From Candidatus Aenigmatarchaeota archaeon (GTDB lineage Archaea > Aenigmatarchaeota > Aenigmatarchaeia > QMZP01 > QMZT01), in the NCBI GenBank assembly GCA_043808015.1, contig JAZDFI010000013.1, positions 1 through 22,251 on the forward strand: a stretch of 22,251 nt of DNA. Reading direction: 5' to 3'. The first letter of the stretch is position 1. Each line of letters begins with the position of its first letter. Shown one piece after another: positions 4,575-18,948 of the stretch. Both the position numbers and the translations under genes were made by a program. The notes beneath the pieces were generated by a model. It had not been told where the DNA came from. It saw only the letters and a program-made list of their open reading frames with translations, and ran no database searches.

Positions 4575-4678
4575 GTCCCGGTAGCTCAGCTGGCAGAGCG
4601 TTCGGCTGTTAACCGAAAGGTCGCACATGAGCTGGGGAACCATCTCGTGGACTAAAGGTTCGAATCCTGCCCGGGACG
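4575..4678 (+). tRNA. tRNA-Asn(GTT) with a 31-nt intron at position 50/51
   Basis: Acceptor GTCCCGG/CCGGGAC plus G73; D-arm GCTC/GAGC; anticodon arm TTCGG-CTGTTAA-CCGAA. The T-arm GCAGG-TTCGAAT-CCTGC is restored only after removing 4625-4655. CCA not encoded. Confidence 0.95.
4625..4655 (+). other. BHB-type tRNA intron (T-stem, 50/51)
   Basis: Central helix GGTC(4619-22)/GACT(4650-53), bulges GC^A and AA^A, inner helix CATGAG/CTCGTG. Confidence 0.88.
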
Positions 4679-4685
4679 TTAAAAA

Positions 4686-4715
4686 TGAGGGCTAACGCAC
4701 CCTCAATTTATTTTT
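4686..4715 (+). terminator. Hairpin plus T-tract after tRNA-Asn
   Basis: TGAGGG(4686-91)/CCCTCA(4700-05) inverted repeat followed by ATTTATTTTT. Confidence 0.45.
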
Positions 4716-4764
4716 GTTAGAAATAGTTACATTAAGTTATATTTTTCCTAAACTCATTATAAAA

Positions 4765-5565
4765 ATGGAGCTTGAATTGAAAAGTGTTGAATTCAGTGTT
4801 TTTGACAAACGTAGAAAAATCTCATTGCCGCACACTCTAAATTCAAATTTAGCTGAAGATATCGGGATACAAATAGGGGATGGTTGTTTGTGCAGAGGCA
4901 AAAAAGATTATACAATAATTTGCAGTTTTAATGCGATAGAAGACAAATACTACGTTGATAATTTTGTCATCCCTCTGAAAACAAAACTTTTCAAAAACGT
5001 GAATTTGATAAAAAACGCTAGATTTGGAGAGATGAGAATAAAAATAGGTTCCAAAGCTATATTCGATTTTTACACAAAGATTATCGGTCTTTCTTTTGGA
5101 AAGAAAGATCATGTAACTATACCGAAAATAATATTCAGAAATAAAAACAACACTATAGCTTGTTTAAGAGGTATCATTGACACGGATTTTTCTATCAGTT
5201 TCAAAAAAAGACACAAAAACATTCATTATTATCCTGTCATATCAGCGAACTTCAAAAGCAAAGAACTTGTTATACAGCTTAGTAAAATTTTTAAAGATTT
5301 GGGATTAAAAGTTCATACGGAATATGATTACGAGAGGTTTGATGAAAGATTCGGGGAGATAATAACACACTATATTTACTTGAAAGGTAAGGATAACTTA
5401 GAAAAATGGTGGGATATCATAGGAAGCAACAATCATAGACATATAACCAAATATAAAATTTTCAAGAAGTTTGGCTATTGCCCACCTAGGATAAATATCA
5501 CAGAAAGGTTTAAAATGATAAAATCTGGTGTTAGTAATAACCTTTTTGAATCTTACACCCAATAA
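4765..5565 (+). CDS. Free-standing LAGLIDADG homing endonuclease (two motifs)
   Basis: Motif 1 LAEDIGIQIGDG, motif 2 ACLRGIIDTDF; Lys-rich; markedly AT-rich relative to host genes. ATG 4765 preferred over TTG 4714. Confidence 0.88.
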   Translation: MELELKSVEFSVFDKRRKISLPHTLNSNLAEDIGIQIGDGCLCRGKKDYTIICSFNAIEDKYYVDNFVIPLKTKLFKNVNLIKNARFGEMRIKIGSKAIFDFYTKIIGLSFGKKDHVTIPKIIFRNKNNTIACLRGIIDTDFSISFKKRHKNIHYYPVISANFKSKELVIQLSKIFKDLGLKVHTEYDYERFDERFGEIITHYIYLKGKDNLEKWWDIIGSNNHRHITKYKIFKKFGYCPPRINITERFKMIKSGVSNNLFESYTQ

Positions 5566-5571
5566 AAGACC

Positions 5572-5850
5572 ATGGAGCTTTTCGACGTGGTCGACAGGCA
5601 CTGCAACATCCGCTTTCTCAAGACCAACTGTAACTTCAGGGAATGCGGGAAGCCGCCTGAGAAGGAAATGCTTATTTTCGAGATGACCATGAACACGGCC
5701 AAGAAGAAGGACATAATTTCCCTTTACCTCTGCCGTGAACACTACAGGGAGATGGAGAAAGCGCTGGAAGGCGTTATCGGCAGGTTCAGGAACGGCCGCG
5801 TCTACAGGATAAAGCAGACGGACGATACGATAGACGTGATTAAATATTGA
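5572..5850 (+). CDS. Small hypothetical protein, putative Zn finger
   Basis: CNFREC...LCREH (C-x4-C...C-x2-H); host-like GC and codon usage. Confidence 0.65.
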   Translation: MELFDVVDRHCNIRFLKTNCNFRECGKPPEKEMLIFEMTMNTAKKKDIISLYLCREHYREMEKALEGVIGRFRNGRVYRIKQTDDTIDVIKY

Positions 5851-5874
5851 TTAAATAACAATACAAATTATTTT

Positions 5875-6657
5875 ATGGATTATATTGTCACATTAAACGA
5901 TGTGCTGAAAATCTACAAATCACAAAAAGCAGGCGAGATGGCTTTGAAACCTTATAAAAAATGGTTTCCTTTAAAGCCCTCACCGGAGTTAGCAGGCGTA
6001 GTTGCCGATTTGATATGTGACGGTCACCTTCAGGGCAGTCCAAAATGGAGAATAGATTTTACCTTCAAAATCAACGAAGAAAAGCTGAGATTCGAAAGAA
6101 AAATTGAAAAAATATTCGGTGTTAAAGGAAAAGCGAGGCCTTGTTATTCCAACGTGTGGGGAGAAAGTTACAATTATGGTGTGAATTGCAAACCCCTAGC
6201 TAAAACCCTTTTTATGTGCGGGGTTCCCAGCGGCAACAAGGTATTGGGAAATTTCGCTTTTCCGGCATGGATTCTTGAAGATAAAAATTATTTCAGAGAA
6301 TTCACGAAAAGATTTTATAATTGCGAGGGCACATGCTGGGGAGGTAAAAGTCCGGGTATAGGCTTTGAGATGTGGAAAGAAGCTGGTAAAATCGACAATT
6401 TAAAAGAATTTTTGGAAGTCATAAGATGTGGCCTGAAAAAATTTTTCGATATAAAAACAACGGAAATTTTCACGACAAGTTCCATGCATGCGAGAAAAGA
6501 TGGCTATGTGACAAAGCCTCTGAGATTTTATATAAAAAGAAAAGAGTCTATATTTAAATTCTATAAAGATATAGGATTTGAATACGAAAAACAAAATAAA
6601 TTGAAAAACATAATAGAAAAATGGGGCAGAACCTCTGTGGGAACTGAAGTGCCATAA
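5875..6657 (+). CDS. Free-standing LAGLIDADG homing endonuclease (two motifs), 3' end overlapping tRNA-Phe
   Basis: Motif 1 LAGVVADLICDG, motif 2 EFTKRFYNCEG, typical C-terminal FYKDIGF..KQNKL; AT-rich; TTAAATA boxes upstream. Confidence 0.88.
   Translation: MDYIVTLNDVLKIYKSQKAGEMALKPYKKWFPLKPSPELAGVVADLICDGHLQGSPKWRIDFTFKINEEKLRFERKIEKIFGVKGKARPCYSNVWGESYNYGVNCKPLAKTLFMCGVPSGNKVLGNFAFPAWILEDKNYFREFTKRFYNCEGTCWGGKSPGIGFEMWKEAGKIDNLKEFLEVIRCGLKKFFDIKTTEIFTTSSMHARKDGYVTKPLRFYIKRKESIFKFYKDIGFEYEKQNKLKNIIEKWGRTSVGTEVP
6643..6657 (+). other. BHB-type tRNA intron in the acceptor stem (4/5), 15 nt
   Basis: Outer helix CT(6635-36)/AG(6659-60), central helix GTGG(6637-40)/CCAT(6652-55), bulges GA^A and AA^C. 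Excision gives GGGACAG, the exact complement of CTGTCCC. Confidence 0.78.
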
Positions 6658-6684
6658 CAGTAGCTCAGCCCGGGAGAGCGCTCG

Positions 6685-6723
6685 AGTGAAACGGATTTGA
6701 CAAAAAAACCGTTTTATGGCGAA
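6685..6723 (+). other. BHB-type tRNA intron in the anticodon stem (30/31), 39 nt
   Basis: Outer helix AG/CT, central helix CGCT/GGCG, bulges CG^A and AA^G, 9-bp inner helix GTGAAACGG/CCGTTTTAT. Confidence 0.9.
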
Positions 6724-6802
6724 GCTGAAGACCGATAGGTCGTGGGTTCAAATCCCACCTGTCCCATATTTTATTTTTATTCTTTCCATCGAATCATTCT
6801 CT

Positions 6803-7861
6803 ATGAAAAAGATCGCCGAAGGAAAAGCGAAGCTTTACGTTCCCGAAGAGTCGCTCACGAAGGATTCTGAAACGTTCTACAATCCGGCCATGGAGCATCA
6901 GCGTAACGTGACCATCGCTGTCGTCCGCCTCGCCGGCTCGAAGGAAGCGCTCGATCCACTGGCGGCGACCGGGATTCGCGGAATCCGCCTGCTAAAGGAA
7001 GCGAACGTCGACAGCGTCGTTTTCAATGACGCCAGCCCGGCTGCGATAAAGCTCGTGCGCAGGAACATCGCTCTCAACAAGATAAAAAAGTCCTCTTATG
7101 AAATCTCCAGGAAGGACGCGAACGAACTTTTCCTCGAAAAAAGGCGCTACAACTTCGTCGACATAGACCCTTTCGGCTCGCCCATCAAGTTCCTGAGAAG
7201 CATCTCTTATGCGCTCAGGAAGGACTCGCTGCTCGGAGTGACGGCGACGGATTCCGGCGCGCTCGCAGGGAAATTCGCTGACGCCTGCTTCAGGCGCTAC
7301 GGCGTTTTCGTATGCTCGACTGACTTCCCGAAAGAGCTGGGCGTGCGCGTGCTCATCACGTCGATACTCAAGAATCTCGCGACGCACGACATGACTTTCG
7401 AGCCTCTGTATTCGCACGCGAACCATTATTTCCGCGTGATAGGGCGAATATCGTACGGGCCGGACAAGAACGTCTCCAAAATAAAAATGGTTTCCTACTG
7501 CCCCAAATGCCATAACAGGAAAATCGGCGTCGAGAGCGTATGCGACAACTGCAGAGGCGAGATGCGTCACATCGGTCCCATATGGACTGGTAAAATTCAC
7601 GACCGCGAATTCTGCAAACGCTTGCTGGAAACGTTCGAATTTCCGGGTAAAAAGGAGATAGAGCTTGCCGCGGAGGCGATAGACCACCCCTTCTACTACG
7701 ACCTGCATGCGCTAGCGCAATCGCTCAAGACCAGCCCTCCGCGCATGGAGAAGCTGATAGAAAAGCTGAGGGTGAAAGGCTTCGAGGCGTCGAGAACGCA
7801 CCTGGAGCTCAGGGCCGTAAAAACCAATGCGCCGTTAAAAGAGCTGAAAAAGCTGTTATAG
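6803..7861 (+). CDS. trm1: tRNA (guanine26-N2)-dimethyltransferase Trm1
   Basis: EGKAK, FYNPAMEHQRN, LAATGIRGIR, VDIDPFGSP, VTATD, ELGVRVL, CxxC..CxxC, GPIWTG, ASRTH. Start moved to ATG 6803 because 6716 lies inside the tRNA. Confidence 0.95.
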   Translation: MKKIAEGKAKLYVPEESLTKDSETFYNPAMEHQRNVTIAVVRLAGSKEALDPLAATGIRGIRLLKEANVDSVVFNDASPAAIKLVRRNIALNKIKKSSYEISRKDANELFLEKRRYNFVDIDPFGSPIKFLRSISYALRKDSLLGVTATDSGALAGKFADACFRRYGVFVCSTDFPKELGVRVLITSILKNLATHDMTFEPLYSHANHYFRVIGRISYGPDKNVSKIKMVSYCPKCHNRKIGVESVCDNCRGEMRHIGPIWTGKIHDREFCKRLLETFEFPGKKEIELAAEAIDHPFYYDLHALAQSLKTSPPRMEKLIEKLRVKGFEASRTHLELRAVKTNAPLKELKKLL

Positions 7862-10766: not shown

Positions 10767-11699
10767 ATGGCAGAGGGTTACGGTTTCGGCAAAATCATTT
10801 TATTCGGCGAGCACTTCGTCGTATACGGGCTGCCGGCGATAGCGTCGGCCATAGGAGATAAAACCATCGCCACAGCCGAGAAGGCGAGAAAATTCGAGCT
10901 GGTCGATAAAAGGCCCGCGACGGATGGTTACAAGATAACCAAGAAAGACGAGATGAACCGTTCCATGAAGCTCATACTCGACTTCATGAAAGTCGACGTG
11001 GTTAAGACGCCGGTCAAAATCACGCTCTCCGGACGCCTGTTCTGCACGAGCGGCATAGGGGCGAGCGCCGCGATGGCGACGTCGATTGCCCGCGCCTTCT
11101 CGGAACATTTCAATCTAAACCTTAGTGATGAACAGGTGAACAGGATTTCATACGAGGGCGAGAAAGGCTCGGCAGGCACGCCGTCGGGCATCGACAACAC
11201 GTGCGCGACTTACGGCGGATTGTTATGGTTCGAGAAGAACCTGAAAGGCGGCGAGAACAAGATGGAACTGATAAAGGCCAAGAAGCCGATAGAAATCGTG
11301 CTAGGCAATACCGGCATCTCTCAGGAGACGAAGCTCGTCGTCGAGGACGTTAAGAAAGCGAGGGAGTCGGATCCCAAGCGATACGACCGCATATTCAGCG
11401 ATTACCTGAAGCTTGTGAAGGAAGCGAGAGGCGTTATCGAGCGAGGGGACATCAAAAGGCTCGGCGCGCTTATGGACGAGAACCACCGCCTATTGAAAGA
11501 AATGCGTCTTTCGTGCGTCCAGGCAGAAGATATAATAAGCGTGGCGAAAGCGAATGGCGCGGCTGGCGCGAAGATAACCGGGACGGGGCGCGGCGGGTAT
11601 GTCATACTGCTCACGCCGGGAAAAGCGGTTCAGGACAATGTAGCGAAAGCGATAGAGGCGAAGGGTTACAAAACGCTTAAGACGGAAATCGGCGTTTAA
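10767..11699 (+). CDS. mvk: Mevalonate kinase
   Basis: GHMP motifs GKIILFGEHFVVYG, SGIGASAA, GTPSGIDN, GAKITGTGRGG; SD AGGTGA. Confidence 0.93.
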   Translation: MAEGYGFGKIILFGEHFVVYGLPAIASAIGDKTIATAEKARKFELVDKRPATDGYKITKKDEMNRSMKLILDFMKVDVVKTPVKITLSGRLFCTSGIGASAAMATSIARAFSEHFNLNLSDEQVNRISYEGEKGSAGTPSGIDNTCATYGGLLWFEKNLKGGENKMELIKAKKPIEIVLGNTGISQETKLVVEDVKKARESDPKRYDRIFSDYLKLVKEARGVIERGDIKRLGALMDENHRLLKEMRLSCVQAEDIISVAKANGAAGAKITGTGRGGYVILLTPGKAVQDNVAKAIEAKGYKTLKTEIGV

Positions 11700-11812
11700 T
11701 ATTCGACGATTGGCGTCTTTCAACAATTTAAAATAAGAACCCAATTTTTCTATTAAGATTATTGAATATTATCAAACACATCAAACGATTAAAGGAATTT
11801 AGGGTGATTTTG

Positions 11813-13093
11813 ATGAACATGAGGGAATTCGTTGATTTGCTGGACAAGAAGGGACTGCTTGTAAAAGTCAAAAAACCAGTCGATACCAAATACGAGATTT
11901 CAACCATAGTCAAGATGCTCGCGGGCAAGCCCGTGCTTTTCGAGCACGTAAAGGGACACGACATGCCGGTCGTATCGAACGTCTGCTCGACTCGCGACCT
12001 AGTATGCCTAGGCCTCGATATTGACAAGAAGGACCTCATAGCGAAACTCACGCATGCGATCGAGAACCCGGCGGAGCCGACGAAGAAAGTGTCGCACGAA
12101 TACCACGAACTGGAATGCGACCTCAGCAAACTCCCGATTCTGACTTATTATCCAAAGGACGGCGGGCCGTACATCGCGTCCGGCATAGCCGTCGCGAAAG
12201 ACGCGGAGCACGGAGTAAACGCTTCGTATCACCGCGCCATGATTCTCGGCAAGGACAGGATGGTGCTGCGCATTCTCGAACGCCACCTGAACGAATACAA
12301 GAAGCGCGGGCTCAAGGAATTCGCCTTCTGCATCGGCAACCCGACCACAGTTCTGATTGGGGCTGCTATTTCGGCTGAACTGGGCAAGAATGAGCTGGCG
12401 ATAGCGAACGCGCTGAATGAGACGAACGTTATCGAACTGAACGGGCACGTCGTGCCTGAAAGCGAAATAGTGATGATATGCGAGTTCACCGGCGACGTCG
12501 CTGACGAAGGGCCATTCCTCGATTTGACGGAGACGTTTGACATCGTCAGAAAACAGTCTGTGGTGCGCGTCAAGAAAATCTACGCGAAGAAAAACGCGAT
12601 TTTCCACGCGCTGCTGCCGGGCGACCTTGAACACAAGATTCTCATGGGCATGCCGCGCGAGCCGACGATTTTCCGCGAGGTTGCGAAGGTATGCGACTGC
12701 CGCGACGTTTACATAACGCCAGGCGGCTGTTCATGGCTGCACGGAGCGGTCAAGATTCACAAGAAGCACGAAGATGACGGGCGCAAGGCTATCGAGGCGG
12801 CTTTCAAAGGCCACGCCTCGATGAAGCACGTGTTCGTTGTCGACGACGACATAAACATTGAAGAGCCGAAGGAAATCGAGTGGGCGCTGGCGACGCGTTT
12901 CCAGGGGGACAAGAACATGGTGGTGAAGACGAAGGAAAAAGGCTCGTCCCTCGACCCGTCCTCGGATATGGCGACGCGCGAAACGACCAAAGTCGGCTTC
13001 GACCTCACGAAGCCGCTCGTCTCGAAGGGCAAGGATTTCAGCAGGCCCGAGCTGCCGATGAAAATAAATCTCGATGACTATCTGGTAGAATAA
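11813..13093 (+). CDS. UbiD-family prFMN decarboxylase, likely trans-anhydromevalonate 5-phosphate decarboxylase
   Basis: DGGPYI, NASYHR, EGPFLD, EHKILMGMPREP, GGCSWLH, VDDDINI, WALATRFQ, GSSLDPS; MVA-cluster context; SD GGGTGA before ATG 11813. Confidence 0.88.
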   Translation: MNMREFVDLLDKKGLLVKVKKPVDTKYEISTIVKMLAGKPVLFEHVKGHDMPVVSNVCSTRDLVCLGLDIDKKDLIAKLTHAIENPAEPTKKVSHEYHELECDLSKLPILTYYPKDGGPYIASGIAVAKDAEHGVNASYHRAMILGKDRMVLRILERHLNEYKKRGLKEFAFCIGNPTTVLIGAAISAELGKNELAIANALNETNVIELNGHVVPESEIVMICEFTGDVADEGPFLDLTETFDIVRKQSVVRVKKIYAKKNAIFHALLPGDLEHKILMGMPREPTIFREVAKVCDCRDVYITPGGCSWLHGAVKIHKKHEDDGRKAIEAAFKGHASMKHVFVVDDDINIEEPKEIEWALATRFQGDKNMVVKTKEKGSSLDPSSDMATRETTKVGFDLTKPLVSKGKDFSRPELPMKINLDDYLVE

Positions 13094-13096
13094 GAG

Positions 13097-13429
13097 ATGG
13101 GTGTGATGCGTATGCTTACCGCTGGAAAGGGGAAATATAAAGTCTGGCTGAAGGAAGCGAGACAAGGCAAGGATGTAATCCTTTTCCTCGGCGGCGGCGA
13201 GAGGACGCATATCGGCTCTGTGGTCGTTTGCGCCCCAGGCAAGCCGGCGAAAGTGCTCAACCGCAAAGGACATTACGACTGGATGGTCGCCATACCCATA
13301 GCGGAGAAAAAAAGCAGGAAGACGAAGAAGGCGGTCGTCTGCATCGCCGGGATTCATGTTAACAATGCCAGCAAGAAGGAAATAGAAATTCTCAAGAAGA
13401 ACTGCAAGGCAATTGAAAACAAAATCTGA
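13097..13429 (+). CDS. LpdD-like putative prenylated-flavin chaperone
   Basis: GKDVILFLGGGERTHIGSV, GHYD, VVCIAGIHVNNASKKEI resemble the LpdD/PAC-like family; directly downstream of the UbiD gene. Confidence 0.7.
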   Translation: MGVMRMLTAGKGKYKVWLKEARQGKDVILFLGGGERTHIGSVVVCAPGKPAKVLNRKGHYDWMVAIPIAEKKSRKTKKAVVCIAGIHVNNASKKEIEILKKNCKAIENKI

Positions 13430-13459
13430 GAAACTAAAAACAATATCGAGGGGTGGATT

Positions 13460-14638
13460 ATGTATCTCACTAAAGAACAGGAACATATGCTCAACGGCGG
13501 TCATGGCGAAGTCGTCGAAAGGCAAATGAGGCTTCTTGTCCGTCTTGGCGAAATATACAAGGCCGAAAAGATGATAGACGTCGGCTCCGTGCAGGTCGCC
13601 GGCGTTTCGTACAAGTCGATAGGCGACCCCGGCCTAGAGTTCCTGGAGGACATTGCAAACAAAGGTGTGAAAGTGAAAGTGCTCACGTTCCTCAATCCGG
13701 CCGGCATCGACATGGAGAGCTGGAGGGAAATCGGCTTCCCGGAAAGCTTTGCGATGATGCAGAAGAAGGTGATGGATGCGTTCGAGAAGATGGGCATCGT
13801 AATGTCGGCGACTTGCACGCCATATCTCGCCGGCAATCTCCCTCGTTTTCGCGAGCACATCGCATGGTCCGAGAGCTCGGCTGTCTCATTCTCGAATTCA
13901 GTGATTGGCGCGAGGACGAACCGCGAAGGCGGGCCGTCCGCGCTGGCGGCTGCGATATGCGGCTTCACTCCGAACTACGGCCTGCACCTCGACGAGAACA
14001 GGAAGCCCCATATGATTGTGAAAGTCGATGCGAAGCTGGAATACAACTCCGATTTTGGCGCGTTAGGCTACCATATCGGCAAGATAGCCGGCAGCAAGAT
14101 ACCATATTTCACCGGCATAAAGAACGCGAATACCGACAATCTCAAAGCGCTCGGCGCTGCGATGGCGGCGAGCGGGGCCGTCGCGCTTTATCATGCTGAA
14201 GGCCTTACGCCGGAAGCGGGCATGATGGACACGAAAGGCCTCGAGACAATCGAGGTTGGCGAGAAAGATCTGAAGGAAGCGTACGCGAAGCTCAACACGG
14301 GCAAGGACCCGGACCTCGTCGTTGTCGGCTGCCCGCACGCGTCTCTAAGGGAGATAATAACGATCGCGAAAAAGCTCGAGGGCAAGCATCTGAAAAAGCC
14401 GCTGTGGATATGCACTTCGCGCGTCATGAAAGACGCCGCAACACGCATGGGCCTTACGGCGACAGTCGAGAAAGCGGGAGGCAAGATAGTCGCGGACACG
14501 TGCATGGTCGTATCGCCCATCGAGGAAATGGGCTTCAAGACTACAGGCGTCGATTCAGGTAAAGCTGGTAACTATCTTCCCGGCTTCTGCAAGCAGAGCG
14601 TCGTTTTCAAAAACATCGACGATCTGATAAAAGGATGA
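13460..14638 (+). CDS. Phosphomevalonate dehydratase large subunit (aconitase X, DUF521)
   Basis: MYLTKEQE, QVAGVSYKSIGD, TCTPY, AWSESSAVSFSNSVIGARTNREGGPSALAAA, GCPHAS, DTCMVVSP. Confidence 0.93.
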   Translation: MYLTKEQEHMLNGGHGEVVERQMRLLVRLGEIYKAEKMIDVGSVQVAGVSYKSIGDPGLEFLEDIANKGVKVKVLTFLNPAGIDMESWREIGFPESFAMMQKKVMDAFEKMGIVMSATCTPYLAGNLPRFREHIAWSESSAVSFSNSVIGARTNREGGPSALAAAICGFTPNYGLHLDENRKPHMIVKVDAKLEYNSDFGALGYHIGKIAGSKIPYFTGIKNANTDNLKALGAAMAASGAVALYHAEGLTPEAGMMDTKGLETIEVGEKDLKEAYAKLNTGKDPDLVVVGCPHASLREIITIAKKLEGKHLKKPLWICTSRVMKDAATRMGLTATVEKAGGKIVADTCMVVSPIEEMGFKTTGVDSGKAGNYLPGFCKQSVVFKNIDDLIKG

Positions 14639-14648
14639 TGGTGATGTT

Positions 14649-15047
14649 ATGACGAAAGAAATTTTGAAGGGAAGGAGCATCTCGCCCGGCAAGGTTGAAG
14701 GTGAAGCGATAGTTTCGAAGACGCCTCTCGGGTTCTACGGCGGCATCGACGCGAAAACGGGCATCGTCATCGAGAAGGGTCACGAGCTCGAGGGAAAGAA
14801 TGTCAAGGATAAGATTCTCGTTTTCCCCACAGGCAAGGGCTCGAAGGTCGGCTCGTATGTAATTTACGGGTTGAAAAGGAACGGCGTCGCGCCGAAAGCG
14901 ATAATCAACAAGGAGACGGAGACTATCGTCGCTACGGGCGTGATTCTCGCCGGCATACCGTGCGTCGACCAGATAGACATAGACAAGCTGGCCACGGGCG
15001 ACAAGCTGAAAATCGACGCGACTAAAGGAACGGTAGAGCATGCGTGA
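14649..15047 (+). CDS. Phosphomevalonate dehydratase small subunit (AcnX swivel domain, DUF126)
   Basis: GRSISPGKVEGEAIVS, GGIDAKTG, GKGSKVGSY, APKAII, IVATGVILAGIP. Confidence 0.93.
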   Translation: MTKEILKGRSISPGKVEGEAIVSKTPLGFYGGIDAKTGIVIEKGHELEGKNVKDKILVFPTGKGSKVGSYVIYGLKRNGVAPKAIINKETETIVATGVILAGIPCVDQIDIDKLATGDKLKIDATKGTVEHA

Positions 15048-15615
15048 CGCTCCTGTCAAAAAAGAAAGAATCATAGTCGGCATTTCCGGAAGCTCCTGCG
15101 CCATACTTGGCGTGCGCTTTCTTGAGACCGCGAAAAAGCTCGGCCTGGAGACGCATCTCGTGATAAGCGAAACTGCAGAGAAAATCATAGAGCACGAAAC
15201 CGGGCTTAAGGTCGGCGACGTGAAAAAGCTCGCGAGTAAAGTTTATGGTTACAGGGATTTGTTTGCACCCATTGCTTCTGGTTCTTTCCAGACGAAAGGC
15301 ATGGTCATAATACCGTGCAGCATGAAGACGCTCGCAGGCGTCGCTTCCGGCTATTCGGACAATCTTATGCTGAGAGCGGCGGACGTCTGCCTTAAAGAGC
15401 GGCGCAAGCTCGTGCTGGTCGCGCGCGAAACTCCGCTGAGTCTGATACACATCGAGAACATGAAACGCGTCACGCTCGCTGGAGGCGTAATCCTGCCACC
15501 TGTCATGACGCTCTATGCGAAACGGAAAAACATAGAAGACCTTACGAATCACGTAATCGGCAAGACGCTCGATGCTTTAGGCATAAATAATGATGCATAC
15601 AAAAGATGGAACTGA
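15040..15615 (+). CDS. ubiX: Flavin prenyltransferase UbiX
   Basis: IVGISGSS, APIASGSF, PCSMKTLA, RAADVCLKERRKLVLVARETPL. Confidence 0.95.
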   Translation: MRDAPVKKERIIVGISGSSCAILGVRFLETAKKLGLETHLVISETAEKIIEHETGLKVGDVKKLASKVYGYRDLFAPIASGSFQTKGMVIIPCSMKTLAGVASGYSDNLMLRAADVCLKERRKLVLVARETPLSLIHIENMKRVTLAGGVILPPVMTLYAKRKNIEDLTNHVIGKTLDALGINNDAYKRWN

Positions 15616-15626
15616 AAGGTGATTTC

Positions 15627-16193
15627 ATGAAAATTCAAAAGGCCGAGATGTTCAACCTGAAGGCAGCGAGCGATAAAAGCAAACCGGACGAGATATTGAA
15701 AATTCTTGACATAAAATCTGGTCAGGCCTTGGCTGACATAGGCTCCGGCGGCGGCTATTTTGCGATGAGATTCGCCGAAGCTGTCGGCAGGAATGGTATA
15801 GTGTATGCTGTGGACGTCAACAAGGAATTTCTAGATTACGTCATGGAAGAGTCCGGAAAGAAGAAAATTGAAAACATAAAGCCGGTCCTCTCGGACGGCG
15901 AGACGGCAGGCCTTCCGGAAAAAGGCATTGACCTCGTTTTCATGCGCAACGCCTACCACCACATACCGAAAAGGGTGGATTATTTCAGGCGTGTTGCGGG
16001 TGCGTTGAAAGGCAACGGAAGGATTGCAATTGTTGAGCGCATTAAGGGCGGCTTCAGTTTGCGCTCGCTTTTGGGGCATTTCGTGGACAAGAAAAAAATA
16101 ATGAGCGAGATGAACGACGCGGGATACGATCTCGCCAAAGAATATGACATACTTGCTAGGCAGTCTTTCATGGTTTTTAAGCCGAAAAAATGA
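15627..16193 (+). CDS. Class I SAM-dependent methyltransferase
   Basis: ADIGSGGGYF (motif I), VYAVDVN, DLVFMRNAYHHI, LKGNGRIAIVE; SD AGGTGA before ATG 15627. Confidence 0.88.
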   Translation: MKIQKAEMFNLKAASDKSKPDEILKILDIKSGQALADIGSGGGYFAMRFAEAVGRNGIVYAVDVNKEFLDYVMEESGKKKIENIKPVLSDGETAGLPEKGIDLVFMRNAYHHIPKRVDYFRRVAGALKGNGRIAIVERIKGGFSLRSLLGHFVDKKKIMSEMNDAGYDLAKEYDILARQSFMVFKPKK

Positions 16194-16202
16194 ATTGATA
16201 TT

Positions 16203-16982
16203 ATGAAAAATCTGGTATTCGTCAAGCTCGGCGGCTCGCTGATAACCGACAAGTCGAGGCCATACACCGCGAGGCATGACGTGATAAGGCGATTGTGCAA
16301 GGAGATACACGAGGCGCGCTCTGAAAAGGATTTCCCGCTGCTCGTAGGCCACGGCGGCGGCAGCTTCCCGCACGTGTCCGCACAGAAATACGAGACGCAT
16401 AAAGGCGCTATTCGCAGCGACAGCTGGGAAGGCTTCGCGAAAGTCCAGGACGACGCCGCGCGGCTCAACAGGATAGTAGTCTCGTCGCTCATGGAAGCCG
16501 ACGAATACGCCGTCTCGATACAGCCGTCCGCATCCTGCACGGCAAGGAACGACCGCATAATCGGATGGCACATGACGCCCATTCAAGTCGCTCTCTCGAA
16601 GGGGCTGATACCAGTGCCGCATGGCGACGTGTGCATCGACGACGTCAAAGGATGCTGCATCATATCCACGGAAGAGATTCTTAACTTTCTCGCGAAAAAG
16701 CTCAGGCCGGAGCGCATAATCATGGCTGGCAAAACCGATGGTGTGCTCGGTCATCTGGGAGAGACGATAAAGCGGATTGACAGGAAAAACTACGCTGGAA
16801 TTATCGACTCGCTCTCCTCGTCGGACGGAATCGCGGACGTGACGGGAGGAATGGCCCAGAAAGTCAAGACGTCGCTGGTCATGGACTGCGAAGTCGAAAT
16901 AATAAACGGCATGAAACCCGGCATGCTCAGAAGAGCGCTGCTAGGGGAGAGAGGGCTGGGAACCATTATTAGCGGAAAGTGA
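16203..16982 (+). CDS. ipk: Isopentenyl phosphate kinase
   Basis: Amino-acid-kinase fold: VKLGGSLITDK, GHGGGSFPH, PVPHGDV, DVTGGMAQKV, GTII. Confidence 0.93.
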   Translation: MKNLVFVKLGGSLITDKSRPYTARHDVIRRLCKEIHEARSEKDFPLLVGHGGGSFPHVSAQKYETHKGAIRSDSWEGFAKVQDDAARLNRIVVSSLMEADEYAVSIQPSASCTARNDRIIGWHMTPIQVALSKGLIPVPHGDVCIDDVKGCCIISTEEILNFLAKKLRPERIIMAGKTDGVLGHLGETIKRIDRKNYAGIIDSLSSSDGIADVTGGMAQKVKTSLVMDCEVEIINGMKPGMLRRALLGERGLGTIISGK

Positions 16983-18008
16983 ATGATGATAATTATGCAT
17001 TCTGATAAAAAGTCCGTCACCAAGTCGCGCAAGGACGACCACATACGCATATGCCTTGAGAAAAACGTCGAATTCGCGAAGTCGAACGGCTTCGACCGCG
17101 TCGAGCTGGAGCACAGCGCGTTACCGGAGATTGAGAGAAGCGACATCGATTTGTCCACCATGTTCCTCGGCAAGAAGTTCCGCTATCCGCTTTTCATAGA
17201 GGCGATAACCGGCGGAACGGAACAGGGGGAGCGCATAAACAAAAACCTTGCACGCGCAGCGGAACAGCTTGGAATTGGCATGGGAGTTGGTTCGCAGCGC
17301 GCGATGCTGGAGGACGCGAAGGCGACTAGAACGTATGCGGTTCGCGATGTCGCTCCTGGCATATTCCTTCTCGGCAACATAGGCGCGGCGCAACTGAGTA
17401 AATACGACACGTCCCGCGTGCTGGCGCTGGTCGATGCGATAAAGGCTGATGGCCTGGCAATCCATCTCAACGTCGCGCAGGAACTCGCCCAAAAAGAAGG
17501 GGACAAATCATGGAAGGGGGTTTATGATGACATAAAGGCGCTGTGCGCCAAGTCAAAAGTCCCGATAATCGCGAAAGAAACCGGCTGCGGCATTTCGGGA
17601 AAGCTTTCGAAATCGCTGGTCACGGCAGGCGTGAAGGCAATCGATATAGCCGGCGCGGGCGGGACTTCATGGGTCAAGGTCGACAGCCATCGCACCAGCG
17701 ACGATGTGAGCCACATCGCGGAATGGGGCATACCTACAGCGACTGCGCTGAAGGACGTCGCTAGCGCTGTCAAAGTCCCGATAATCGCTTCCGGAGGCAT
17801 ACGCAACGGCGTCGATGCCGCTAAGGCGCTAGCGATGGGAGCCGACTTGGTCGGCATGGCCTTGCCGCTGCTGAAACCGGCGACTGAATCTTCCGAAAGT
17901 GTTAAGAAATATCTGCAAAAAATAATCTCGCAGCTTGAGGATGCGATGTTCCTGGTCGGCGCGAGGAACGTGGCCGAGTTGAAGAAAGTGAAAGTCACTT
18001 ACGTCTAG
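16983..18008 (+). CDS. fni: Type 2 isopentenyl-diphosphate isomerase (FMN-dependent)
   Basis: RKDDHIRICL, AITGG, MGVGSQR, NIGAAQL, HLNVAQE, KETGCG, AGAGGTSW, WGIPT, ASGGIRNG. The start may be 16995. Confidence 0.96.
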   Translation: MMIIMHSDKKSVTKSRKDDHIRICLEKNVEFAKSNGFDRVELEHSALPEIERSDIDLSTMFLGKKFRYPLFIEAITGGTEQGERINKNLARAAEQLGIGMGVGSQRAMLEDAKATRTYAVRDVAPGIFLLGNIGAAQLSKYDTSRVLALVDAIKADGLAIHLNVAQELAQKEGDKSWKGVYDDIKALCAKSKVPIIAKETGCGISGKLSKSLVTAGVKAIDIAGAGGTSWVKVDSHRTSDDVSHIAEWGIPTATALKDVASAVKVPIIASGGIRNGVDAAKALAMGADLVGMALPLLKPATESSESVKKYLQKIISQLEDAMFLVGARNVAELKKVKVTYV

Positions 18009-18948
18009 TTTTTTTCAACACACGGAATTCAAAAACTGCAATAAAGGGAAGTGAAAATAACAATATCCATAAATAAAAACTATCACCTATCGTCAAATTT
18101 TGACTCAACGACTCAATAAATTTTGAGTCGTTTTCTTTAATTTCGATTTCTTTCGTGTCATTGAGAATAACGAAAGAAGGTATGAAAGGTATAATATCAA
18201 TTTCTATTTTTATTGTATAGTTATTTGGTCCTAAATTTTTTTCAAAAATACCACCAGAATCAGTTTTTTCAATTAAACTGGTGGAAGGTTCTTTATTCTC
18301 ATCTGGTTTTGCTTCCATGAGATGATGGCTTTTCAAAATAATTCTAGATTCAGTTGGAATTAAATTATTTGTTACTTTTACTGTAAGTCTTCCAGTTTTC
18401 ACATATTTCTCTGTTACATCATGTTGTATTCCAGTACTTTCTGTCCAAAAAACGTAAGATAGCCTTTTGCTTAAATTACCATCAGTCCATACGTCTGAAT
18501 AAAATTTTGGATTATCATAACTTACTTGGCTACCAGTAAAGGGGTCTAAATTAATCCATCTATTTTCTGAAAAAATTTCAACCCAAAAATGACGTTCTCC
18601 GTTTGTACCAACCATTCTTGCAGGTATTCCAATGGAATTTGACATTTGAATAAAAATGTTAGAAAAATCTATACAATCTCCGATTTTTGTAAAGTAAACA
18701 GCCTCTGGTATATGAAAAAACGTGCTACAGCAACTTATATTATATTTATGAAACCACCAAGCTAAAGCCAGCGCTTTTTCTTTATCGGTGCTGAGATTTT
18801 CAGTTTCCCTCAAAGCAATATTTTTATATTCTTTTTGCGCCCATAAAAACTGCCATATACAGATGAACGCGATTGAAACAATTACGACAAGAATAATCCA
18901 TAAAATTCTATTTTTATTTGTTCTTAGCCATTCCAGTGTCTTTTTCAT
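17995..18948 (-). CDS. Membrane-anchored transglutaminase-like (Cys-His-Asp) protein
   Basis: GDCIDFS, GIPARMV, HFWVEI, WINLDP; N- and C-terminal hydrophobic helices; strongly AT-rich. Confidence 0.85.
   Translation of the reverse strand: MKKTLEWLRTNKNRILWIILVVIVSIAFICIWQFLWAQKEYKNIALRETENLSTDKEKALALAWWFHKYNISCCSTFFHIPEAVYFTKIGDCIDFSNIFIQMSNSIGIPARMVGTNGERHFWVEIFSENRWINLDPFTGSQVSYDNPKFYSDVWTDGNLSKRLSYVFWTESTGIQHDVTEKYVKTGRLTVKVTNNLIPTESRIILKSHHLMEAKPDENKEPSTSLIEKTDSGGIFEKNLGPNNYTIKIEIDIIPFIPSFVILNDTKEIEIKENDSKFIESLSQNLTIGDSFYLWILLFSLPFIAVFEFRVLKKTRRK

Follow-up and report, generated by a model that had tools for sequence, protein, structure and literature searches.

The stretch of DNA analysed here (the window; 22,251 nt, contig JAZDFI010000013.1 of a Candidatus Aenigmatarchaeota archaeon) carries two free-standing genes for putative homing endonucleases of the LAGLIDADG type, HEG1 and HEG2, each lying next to a tRNA gene that is interrupted by bulge–helix–bulge (BHB) introns. 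The HEG2 family is found across DPANN archaea, is dedicated to tRNA-Phe(GAA), and lies nearly always on the 5′ side of that gene, and most of these tRNA-Phe genes bear a short intron at the end facing the endonuclease gene. The best explanation, which we hold to be evenly poised between right and wrong, is collaborative homing into tRNA gene ends, in which the intron gives immunity and is co-converted. An earlier note on this DNA had described two tRNA genes with BHB introns (Asn 50/51; Phe 4/5), each abutting an AT-rich, double-motif LAGLIDADG gene. This description was confirmed, and the three splice junctions given there are those obtained here. The elements concerned are the following:

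4575..4624, + strand: tRNA-Asn(GTT) exon 1, positions 1–50 (Rfam; ARAGORN on the spliced form)
4625..4655, + strand: 31-nt BHB intron within the T stem, at 50/51 (a 3-nt bulge on either side of a 4/4-bp central helix)
4656..4678, + strand: tRNA-Asn exon 2, positions 51–73 (Rfam; ARAGORN on the spliced form)
4765..5565, + strand: HEG1, free-standing double-motif LAGLIDADG gene (266 aa, GC 0.31)
5875..6657, + strand: HEG2, free-standing double-motif LAGLIDADG gene (260 aa, GC 0.37)
6623..6629, + strand: 7-mer resembling the acceptor strand, a degenerate repeat of the 5′ strand of tRNA-Phe that falls within the end of the HEG2 frame
6639..6642, + strand: tRNA-Phe(GAA) exon 1, positions 1–4
6643..6657, + strand: 15-nt BHB intron at 4/5 (central helix 4/4 bp; last 3 nt are the HEG2 stop codon)
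6658..6684, + strand: tRNA-Phe exon 2, positions 5–30
6685..6723, + strand: 39-nt BHB intron at 30/31 (central helix 4/4 bp, 9-bp inner helix)
6724..6766, + strand: tRNA-Phe exon 3, positions 31–73 (Rfam, spliced form)

An endonuclease family tied to tRNA-Phe

The linkage between HEG2 and tRNA-Phe is specific and recurrent, and does not reflect chance. A scan of 185,579 species genomes with the HEG2 alignment yielded 33 loci (given L numbers below) from 141 pattern matches, a count that is limited by the two-pattern search. All 33 are found in DPANN-type genome bins; taxon labels are given as recorded and are probably mistaken in some cases (two read 'Methanosarcinales' and one 'Falkowbacteria'). 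As L030 and L032 stop at a contig edge inside or just after the gene, 31 loci could be judged. The earlier note had proposed a survey of relatives for endonuclease–tRNA pairing, and the pairing holds throughout: in all 31 loci a tRNA-Phe(GAA) gene lies within ~300 nt of the HEG2-family gene. The two genes are co-oriented in 22 loci, where the endonuclease gene directly precedes the 5′ end of the tRNA, and divergent in seven, where the gene start faces the tRNA 5′ end (L006, L016, L018, L019, L023, L027, and L028). The remaining two endonuclease genes lie on the tRNA 3′ side, being convergent and overlapping in L009 and preceded by the tRNA in L010. Rfam called the tRNA-Phe gene in 24 of the 31 loci; the other seven, heavily interrupted genes that Rfam missed, were identified by T-arm and anticodon-loop patterns together with reading, and ARAGORN was applied to the raw regions as well.

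In a quick maximum-likelihood tree of 29 intact HEG2-family proteins, the tRNA-Phe link spans the whole tree. The Aenigmatarchaeota copies fall into two separate clades, one joining the window and L001 with L002 (4/5 intron) and a second joining L003 and L004 with L017 (9/10 intron), and tree placement disagrees with the phylum labels.

Introns at the tRNA end facing the endonuclease gene

Among the 29 loci with a HEG2-family gene on the 5′ side, 24 have a BHB intron in tRNA-Phe at 3/4 (three loci; L011, L021, and L025), 4/5 (14 loci, the group to which the window belongs), or 9/10 (seven loci). By our own reading, this 5′-proximal intron is the sole tRNA-Phe intron in eight loci. Enrichment was measured against the other tRNAs of the same loci, where two of 21 non-Phe tRNA matches have an intron in positions 1–10, both representing one allele (tRNA-Asn of L003/L004); this Rfam-based baseline misses heavily interrupted genes. 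The two 3′-side loci (L009 and L010) have no intron at all. The correlation between intron side and endonuclease side envisaged in the earlier note is thus borne out by these three counts, but only in part, as no 5′ intron is present in five of the 29 loci (L005, L012, L013, L014, and L019).

The 5′-proximal introns are real BHB introns. In this geometry, a central helix forms between two 4-nt segments, one that stops two bases short of the exon end and one that stops two bases short of the intron end; it comprises 4/4 bp in 18 and 3/4 bp in seven of 25 such introns. At random positions of the same loci a 4/4 helix occurs at a rate of 2.5%, or 7% with the best of three registers, which allows for the free choice in placing ambiguous junctions. 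The introns comprise 11 distinct central-helix types, several of which differ by compensatory changes. Even the sister endonucleases of L020 and L026 accompany introns at different sites, 9/10 and 4/5, respectively.

HEG1 starts 86 nt 3′ of tRNA-Asn, whereas the frame of HEG2 crosses tRNA-Phe exon 1: its final 19 nt consist of exon 1 and the whole 4/5 intron, and its stop codon TAA forms the last 3 nt of that intron. HEG2 is therefore not wholly outside an intron, and the statement of the earlier note that both endonuclease genes lie outside any intron has to be amended for this gene. The stop codon likewise coincides with the intron end in L001, L003, and L004, and falls within the intron in L002 and L017.

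Segments of the tRNA-Phe ends are duplicated at several loci. The acceptor 5′ strand recurs just upstream of exon 1 in L003 and L004 (10755, 10767), L029 (1855, 1887), and L031 (6728, 6737), with the degenerate copy at 6623–6629 in the window, and L018 holds a 17-nt copy of the tRNA-Phe 3′ end, ~75 nt downstream of that end. Such segments may have been left behind by earlier insertion or repair.

Both the overlapping frames and the duplications bear on an account in which the introns are by-products of the endonucleases, i.e., either spliceable repair scars and partial duplications, or remnants of a shrunken, once intron-encoded gene whose first exon was re-created downstream. It would explain why the HEG2 frame enters the intron and stops at its end or inside it, and why tRNA 5′ strands are duplicated upstream of exon 1 in four loci (L003, L004, L029, and L031, besides the degenerate window copy) and the 3′ end downstream in L018; the closest folds, moreover, are those of the archaeal rRNA-intron endonucleases I-DmoI and I-Tsp061I. 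However, no copy of the tRNA 5′ strand is found upstream of any HEG2 gene, which led us to reject a HEG2 gene nested in a giant intron with an upstream first exon, and in seven loci with the same intron family the endonuclease gene is divergent. An origin as scars would also be compatible with an immunity function and does not exclude it. Altogether, we consider the by-product account unlikely.

A third gene family also packs against tRNA 5′ ends. In L003 (7021–7830, + strand), its open reading frame (ORF) of 269 aa reads into a tRNA-Asn gene (~7765–7858) with an intron at 8/9 and a second copy of its acceptor 5′ strand, and L004 is alike. The protein has an N-terminal helix-turn-helix (weak Pfam matches), and the nearest ESM Atlas clusters to its C-terminal part are of the DUF559 type (score 0.90, a lead only). 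The family comprises 81 proteins in DPANN bins, many of which end in M/L-P-x or A-S-V-A(-Q), C-termini that would fit a frame entering positions 1–10 of an uninterrupted tRNA gene.

The two tRNA genes of the window

Both tRNA genes of the window were delimited by hand reading. On the raw window, ARAGORN found no tRNA and Rfam returned only the 3′ part of tRNA-Phe, with a weak match in the transfer-messenger RNA (tmRNA) clan; the Rfam tRNA model scored 49.1 bits on 4575–4678 (tRNA-Asn). ARAGORN recognises a 73-nt tRNA-Asn once the intron is removed, and a 74-nt tRNA-Phe once both introns are removed. All three introns have a 4-bp central helix and two flanking 3-nt bulges where the cloverleaf predicts them, and the inner hairpin of the Asn intron has a folding energy of −10.5 kcal/mol. 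Because the outer helix comprises only 2–3 of 5 bp (1–5 of 5 across the loci), the introns of the window would fit the relaxed BHB form. This form requires a splicing endonuclease of broad specificity; a splicing endonuclease gene is absent from the 22,251-nt window.

L001, from an Aenigmatarchaeota genome bin, is the nearest relative of the window among the loci compared (topoisomerase VI subunit A protein 97% identical). The Asn 50/51 intron is identical in L001 and missing from the tRNA-Asn of L030, which has a different intron at 59/60 in the T loop. Homologues of the Phe 4/5 intron are present in L001 and L002. The Phe 30/31 intron has the same site and 3′ end in L001 with a differing interior; further introns at 30/31 occur in tRNA-Phe of L011 and L029 and in tRNA-Lys(CTT) of L032 (9331–9437), and their 3′ ends look alike. 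The minimum-energy fold pairs the 7-mer at 6623–6629 with the 3′ acceptor strand. As a candidate for the true first Phe exon, with an intron at 7/8, this 7-mer was rejected because no central helix forms.

HEG1 and HEG2 as LAGLIDADG proteins

HEG1 and HEG2 each contain two LAGLIDADG-type motifs ending in an acidic residue. In the HEG1 family alignment D39 is invariant and D141 nearly so, and D49 and E151 of HEG2 are invariant in all 29 intact family members (loci and window). Pfam gave no direct match to either protein at E-values up to 0.1, and NCBIfam and Protein Data Bank (PDB) sequence searches yielded weak matches only, to intein endonuclease regions. Homologues (36 for HEG1 and 26 for HEG2) frequently carry PF14528. 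A BLASTP comparison of HEG1 with HEG2 revealed no detectable likeness (E = 1). AlphaFold models reached predicted local distance difference test (pLDDT) values of 93.9 for HEG1 and 92.0 for HEG2. The top Foldseek matches (probability 1.00) were the VMA intein endonuclease, I-Tsp061I, and I-DmoI for HEG1, and the VMA intein endonuclease, PI-PfuI, I-Tsp061I, and I-SceI for HEG2, with the non-nuclease relatives WhiA and bI3 maturase also among the neighbours. The predicted folds fit a pseudo-symmetric pair of alpha-beta-beta-alpha-beta-beta-alpha halves. Both genes were assigned to the LAGLIDADG group because of their motifs, their PF14528-bearing homologues, and these predicted folds. Between the window and L001, the ratio of nonsynonymous to synonymous substitution rates (dN/dS) of HEG2 is 0.14, so the gene is maintained as a protein. 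Judged by folds, catalytic acids, and, for HEG2, purifying selection, HEG1 and HEG2 are likely active nucleases.

Base composition, loss, and decay

Foreign base composition and a cycle of invasion and decay mark both genes as apparent selfish elements. The source archaeon has a G+C content of ~52%, and the window outside HEG1 and HEG2 has a GC of 0.52. HEG2-family genes are 0.03–0.15 lower in GC than their own locus in 23 of 30 rows and lie within 0.02 of it in the other seven. In L001, the equivalent of window bases 4732–5441 is deleted, leaving the last 39 codons of HEG1. L030, from a more distant Aenigmatarchaeota bin, has no HEG1, and its HEG2 shows an internal deletion of ~210 bp. In total, four of the 33 HEG2-family copies are broken (L024, L030, L031, and L033). 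Patchy distribution, low GC, and decayed copies are indirect signs that would point to site-specific cleavage and homing.

Synonymous divergence (dS) between the window and L001 is 0.22 for HEG2 and 0.20 for the 92-aa ORF that precedes it, compared to 0.57 for Trm1 and 0.42 for topoisomerase VI subunit A. The low values across 5572–6657 hint at a recent tract of exchange or conversion, albeit from small counts and genes of differing codon usage.

The strict linkage (31 of 31) and the low dN/dS could also mean that the LAGLIDADG proteins are domesticated, vertically inherited host factors, for example regulators that bind DNA or RNA chaperones that serve the expression or splicing of tRNA-Phe, and the presence of WhiA and bI3 maturase among the structural neighbours is in keeping with such a role. 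We regard this as very improbable: the two catalytic acids do not vary among the intact members, close relatives have broken copies or have lost them, the genes are poorer in GC than the host, and tree placement and phylum labels disagree. Furthermore, the family amounts to just 33 loci in the species genomes scanned, within the limit that the two-pattern search sets on that count.

The HEG1 family

A profile search for the HEG1 family retrieved 662 representatives at E ≤ 1e-30. In the HEG1 alignment, P0006–P0015 and P0020 carry N-terminal extensions that read like the translation of a tRNA-Phe gene, from the D arm through the anticodon loop to the T arm; tblastn maps them to the tRNA-Phe of L017 (E 0.002–0.003; ~0.5 Mb database). 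Within a set of 180 HEG1-family proteins, an anticodon-arm peptide was found near the N-terminus in 12 and a T-arm peptide in nine, and an antisense-tRNA peptide at the C-terminal end in five and at the start in one. Shuffled sequences gave 0–0.45 tRNA-peptide matches per replicate. These translated tRNA-Phe N-termini and antisense tRNA ends appear to place the HEG1 family, which is larger than that of HEG2, at tRNA 3′ ends, here that of tRNA-Asn. The read-through spacing from anticodon-loop to T-loop peptide suggests an extra 22–31 nt in the tRNA 3′ half, an estimate biased towards frames that stay open, as only these are visible. Two loci contain HEG1-like genes as well: in L023, one converges on the tRNA-Phe 3′ end while HEG2 diverges from the 5′ end, the tRNA having introns at 4/5, in the D-loop, and in the T-loop; in L032, one lies between two tRNA-Lys genes.

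A proposed homing mechanism

For collaborative homing, we infer a cleavage target, an immunity, and a co-conversion. Each enzyme would recognise and cut the conserved, uninterrupted end of its tRNA gene in a genome that has no endonuclease gene, and repair would copy the endonuclease gene along with the adjacent tRNA end. The short BHB intron (Phe 4/5 or 9/10; Asn 50/51) would split the recognition site and thereby protect the carrier; it would ride in the conversion tract, and the splicing endonuclease of the host would excise it from the transcript. The earlier note had put forward this mechanism, and its outcome is mixed: the specific pairing, the endonuclease-facing introns, and the selfish decay speak for it, while the five intron-less carriers among 29 and the Asn intron kept in L001 do not.

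Several observations weigh against it. At the five intron-less loci, the HEG2 genes look intact and encode both catalytic acids, so the intron cannot be the sole means of self-protection; either immunity has another basis there or the intron is dispensable. In L001, tRNA-Asn and its 50/51 intron are unchanged despite the loss of HEG1, and L030 has its different Asn intron (59/60) yet no HEG1. The intron families track the endonuclease clades, and plain vertical co-inheritance would look alike. tRNAs of these lineages are generally rich in introns (30/31, D-loop, 37/38, and T-loop), and the 30/31 intron of the window is of this widespread type, unrelated to the endonuclease. Tight packing against a tRNA 5′ end does not by itself entail an intron either, as the third gene family described above mostly abuts tRNA genes without an intron in positions 1–10. 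Lastly, the spliced tRNA-Phe has a C27–U43 mismatch.

Part of this evidence would be expected if the linkage came without immunity. The conserved tRNA gene would then serve as a target or as a homology arm, the introns would be passengers or part of a general intron load of DPANN archaea, and the carrier would be protected by the insertion of the endonuclease gene itself or by point differences in the site. Besides the five intron-less loci with intact-looking enzymes, the many other intron positions in the same genes, and the survival of the Asn intron after HEG1 loss, this reading gains from L012, where the HEG2 stop codon overlaps tRNA positions 5–7; the insertion itself therefore abuts the tRNA gene. 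However, a passenger could sit anywhere in a 75-nt gene, whereas the commonest intron, the sole one in eight loci, lies in the first 10 positions and faces the endonuclease; the switch between 4/5 and 9/10 even between the sister endonucleases L020 and L026 likewise speaks against a passenger. We therefore rate linkage without immunity as possible but rather doubtful, and prefer collaborative homing.

A bolder version of collaborative homing, which we offer only tentatively and think more apt to fail than to hold, is that non-canonical archaeal tRNA introns owe their origin as well as their spread to homing endonucleases. Cutting at tRNA ends would favour small inserts or partly duplicated segments that destroy the site and can still be spliced by a broad-specificity endonuclease. 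Gene conversion would then move the introns together with the endonuclease gene, both inside a DPANN lineage and from one such lineage to another, and 4/5 and 9/10 would correspond to the two sides of a staggered LAGLIDADG cut.

Other features of the locus

The genes around the two endonucleases are ordered as follows: topoisomerase VI A, tRNA-Asn(GTT), HEG1, the 92-aa ORF, HEG2, tRNA-Phe(GAA), and Trm1. Two further elements lie within this block:

4687..4718, + strand: hairpin (5 bp) followed by a T-rich run, 3′ of tRNA-Asn (read from sequence; kept in L001), possibly a terminator
5572..5850, + strand: 92-aa cysteine-rich host ORF between the endonuclease genes (GC 0.49)

The 92-aa ORF is kept in L001 (89% aa identity) and L030 (56% aa identity), and neither Pfam nor NCBIfam gives a match to it. 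A block of tRNA-Asn, HEG2, and tRNA-Phe with both tRNAs on the same strand is found in the window (4575–6766), L002 (2665–3722), and L021 (1727–2733), in bins that bear three different phylum labels; it reflects either an ancient gene order or a transfer of the block in its entirety.

A third AT-rich island of the window (17995–18948, − strand; GC 0.31) encodes a 317-aa transglutaminase-like protein (PF01841). It was rejected as a third endonuclease on account of this content and is probably another horizontally acquired gene, unrelated to the endonucleases. Positions 10767–18008 hold a gene cluster of the archaeal mevalonate-pathway type, comprising a GHMP kinase, a UbiD-like protein, the large and small subunits of aconitase X, a flavoprotein, and proteins with amino-acid-kinase and FMN-dependent dehydrogenase folds. 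In L004 (4948–7437, + strand), the topoisomerase VI subunit A gene is split by ~1.4 kb matching LAGLIDADG profiles, an insert that looks like an intein with an endonuclease domain and that the near-identical L003 does not have. A long ORF of L001 (14187–15956, − strand) matches both LAGLIDADG profiles weakly (E 1.6e-5 and 1.6e-6), in a region where the gene content of the window differs.

Relation to known systems

The genes of I-DmoI and I-Tsp061I lie inside large BHB introns of archaeal rRNA. They share fold and intron class with the system described here and are the nearest solved structures (template modelling score, TM-score, up to ~0.7 on target length). In contrast, HEG1 and HEG2 lie outside, or only overlap, a tiny tRNA intron too small for an ORF.

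Collaborative homing, as far as the available parts of the sources describe it, is known for phage group I introns (PMC3984707; PMC6083498). As in these phages, the endonuclease gene is free-standing and neighbours a gene that has an ORF-less intron at the expected site of action, and the proposed logic of immunity and co-conversion would be the same. Unlike there, the interrupted gene is a tRNA gene of a cellular archaeon, its intron is of the protein-spliced BHB kind and 14–38 nt long, the enzyme is of the LAGLIDADG type with a target that we infer, and five of 29 carriers are without the intron. The accessible text on phage T4 SegB describes a free-standing GIY-YIG homing endonuclease within a tRNA gene cluster, whose site includes a conserved motif of the tRNA T stem-loop and whose gene drags neighbouring tRNA genes along (PMC2330249). 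On that account, SegB resembles the present genes in its setting among tRNA genes and sets a precedent for the recognition of a tRNA motif; it differs in enzyme family and phage host, involves no introns, and is not dedicated to one tRNA species.

Two models of tRNA introns, taken here from the portions of the sources at hand, come close to the present proposal: a mobile-element model of intron gain (Sugahara et al. 2012; PMC3293823), and the shielding of tRNA genes from integrating elements by introns (Randau and Soll 2008, cited in PMC4090602). Common to them and to our loci are a mobile gene beside a tRNA, leftover tRNA 5′ fragments, and an intron that disrupts the site of a selfish element. 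However, in the same portions those models concern recombinase or integrase elements and att sites in other archaea (Caldiarchaeum and Sulfolobus), and include neither a homing endonuclease nor a dedicated pairing of one family with one tRNA. A full-text literature search, with supplements and subscription journals outside its range, returned no paper that ties homing endonuclease genes to archaeal tRNA introns. The link was likewise not found in the available parts of PMC4090602, PMC6125680, and PMC5829648, and in the accessible portions of the archaeal tRNA-intron reviews covered by that search, the term 'homing endonuclease' had 0 occurrences. A 2026 preprint, in the part available, still describes the route by which archaeal tRNA introns arrive as open.

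For the arrival and movement of archaeal tRNA introns that hold no ORF, this locus and its relatives offer a testable candidate route. If the enzymes cut intron-less tRNA genes, collaborative homing would extend from phage group I introns to the protein-spliced introns of cellular genes. It would also account for introns at sites that otherwise lack a ready rationale, the 5′ acceptor stem among them, and the enzymes would represent new natural LAGLIDADG nucleases with tRNA-gene targets.

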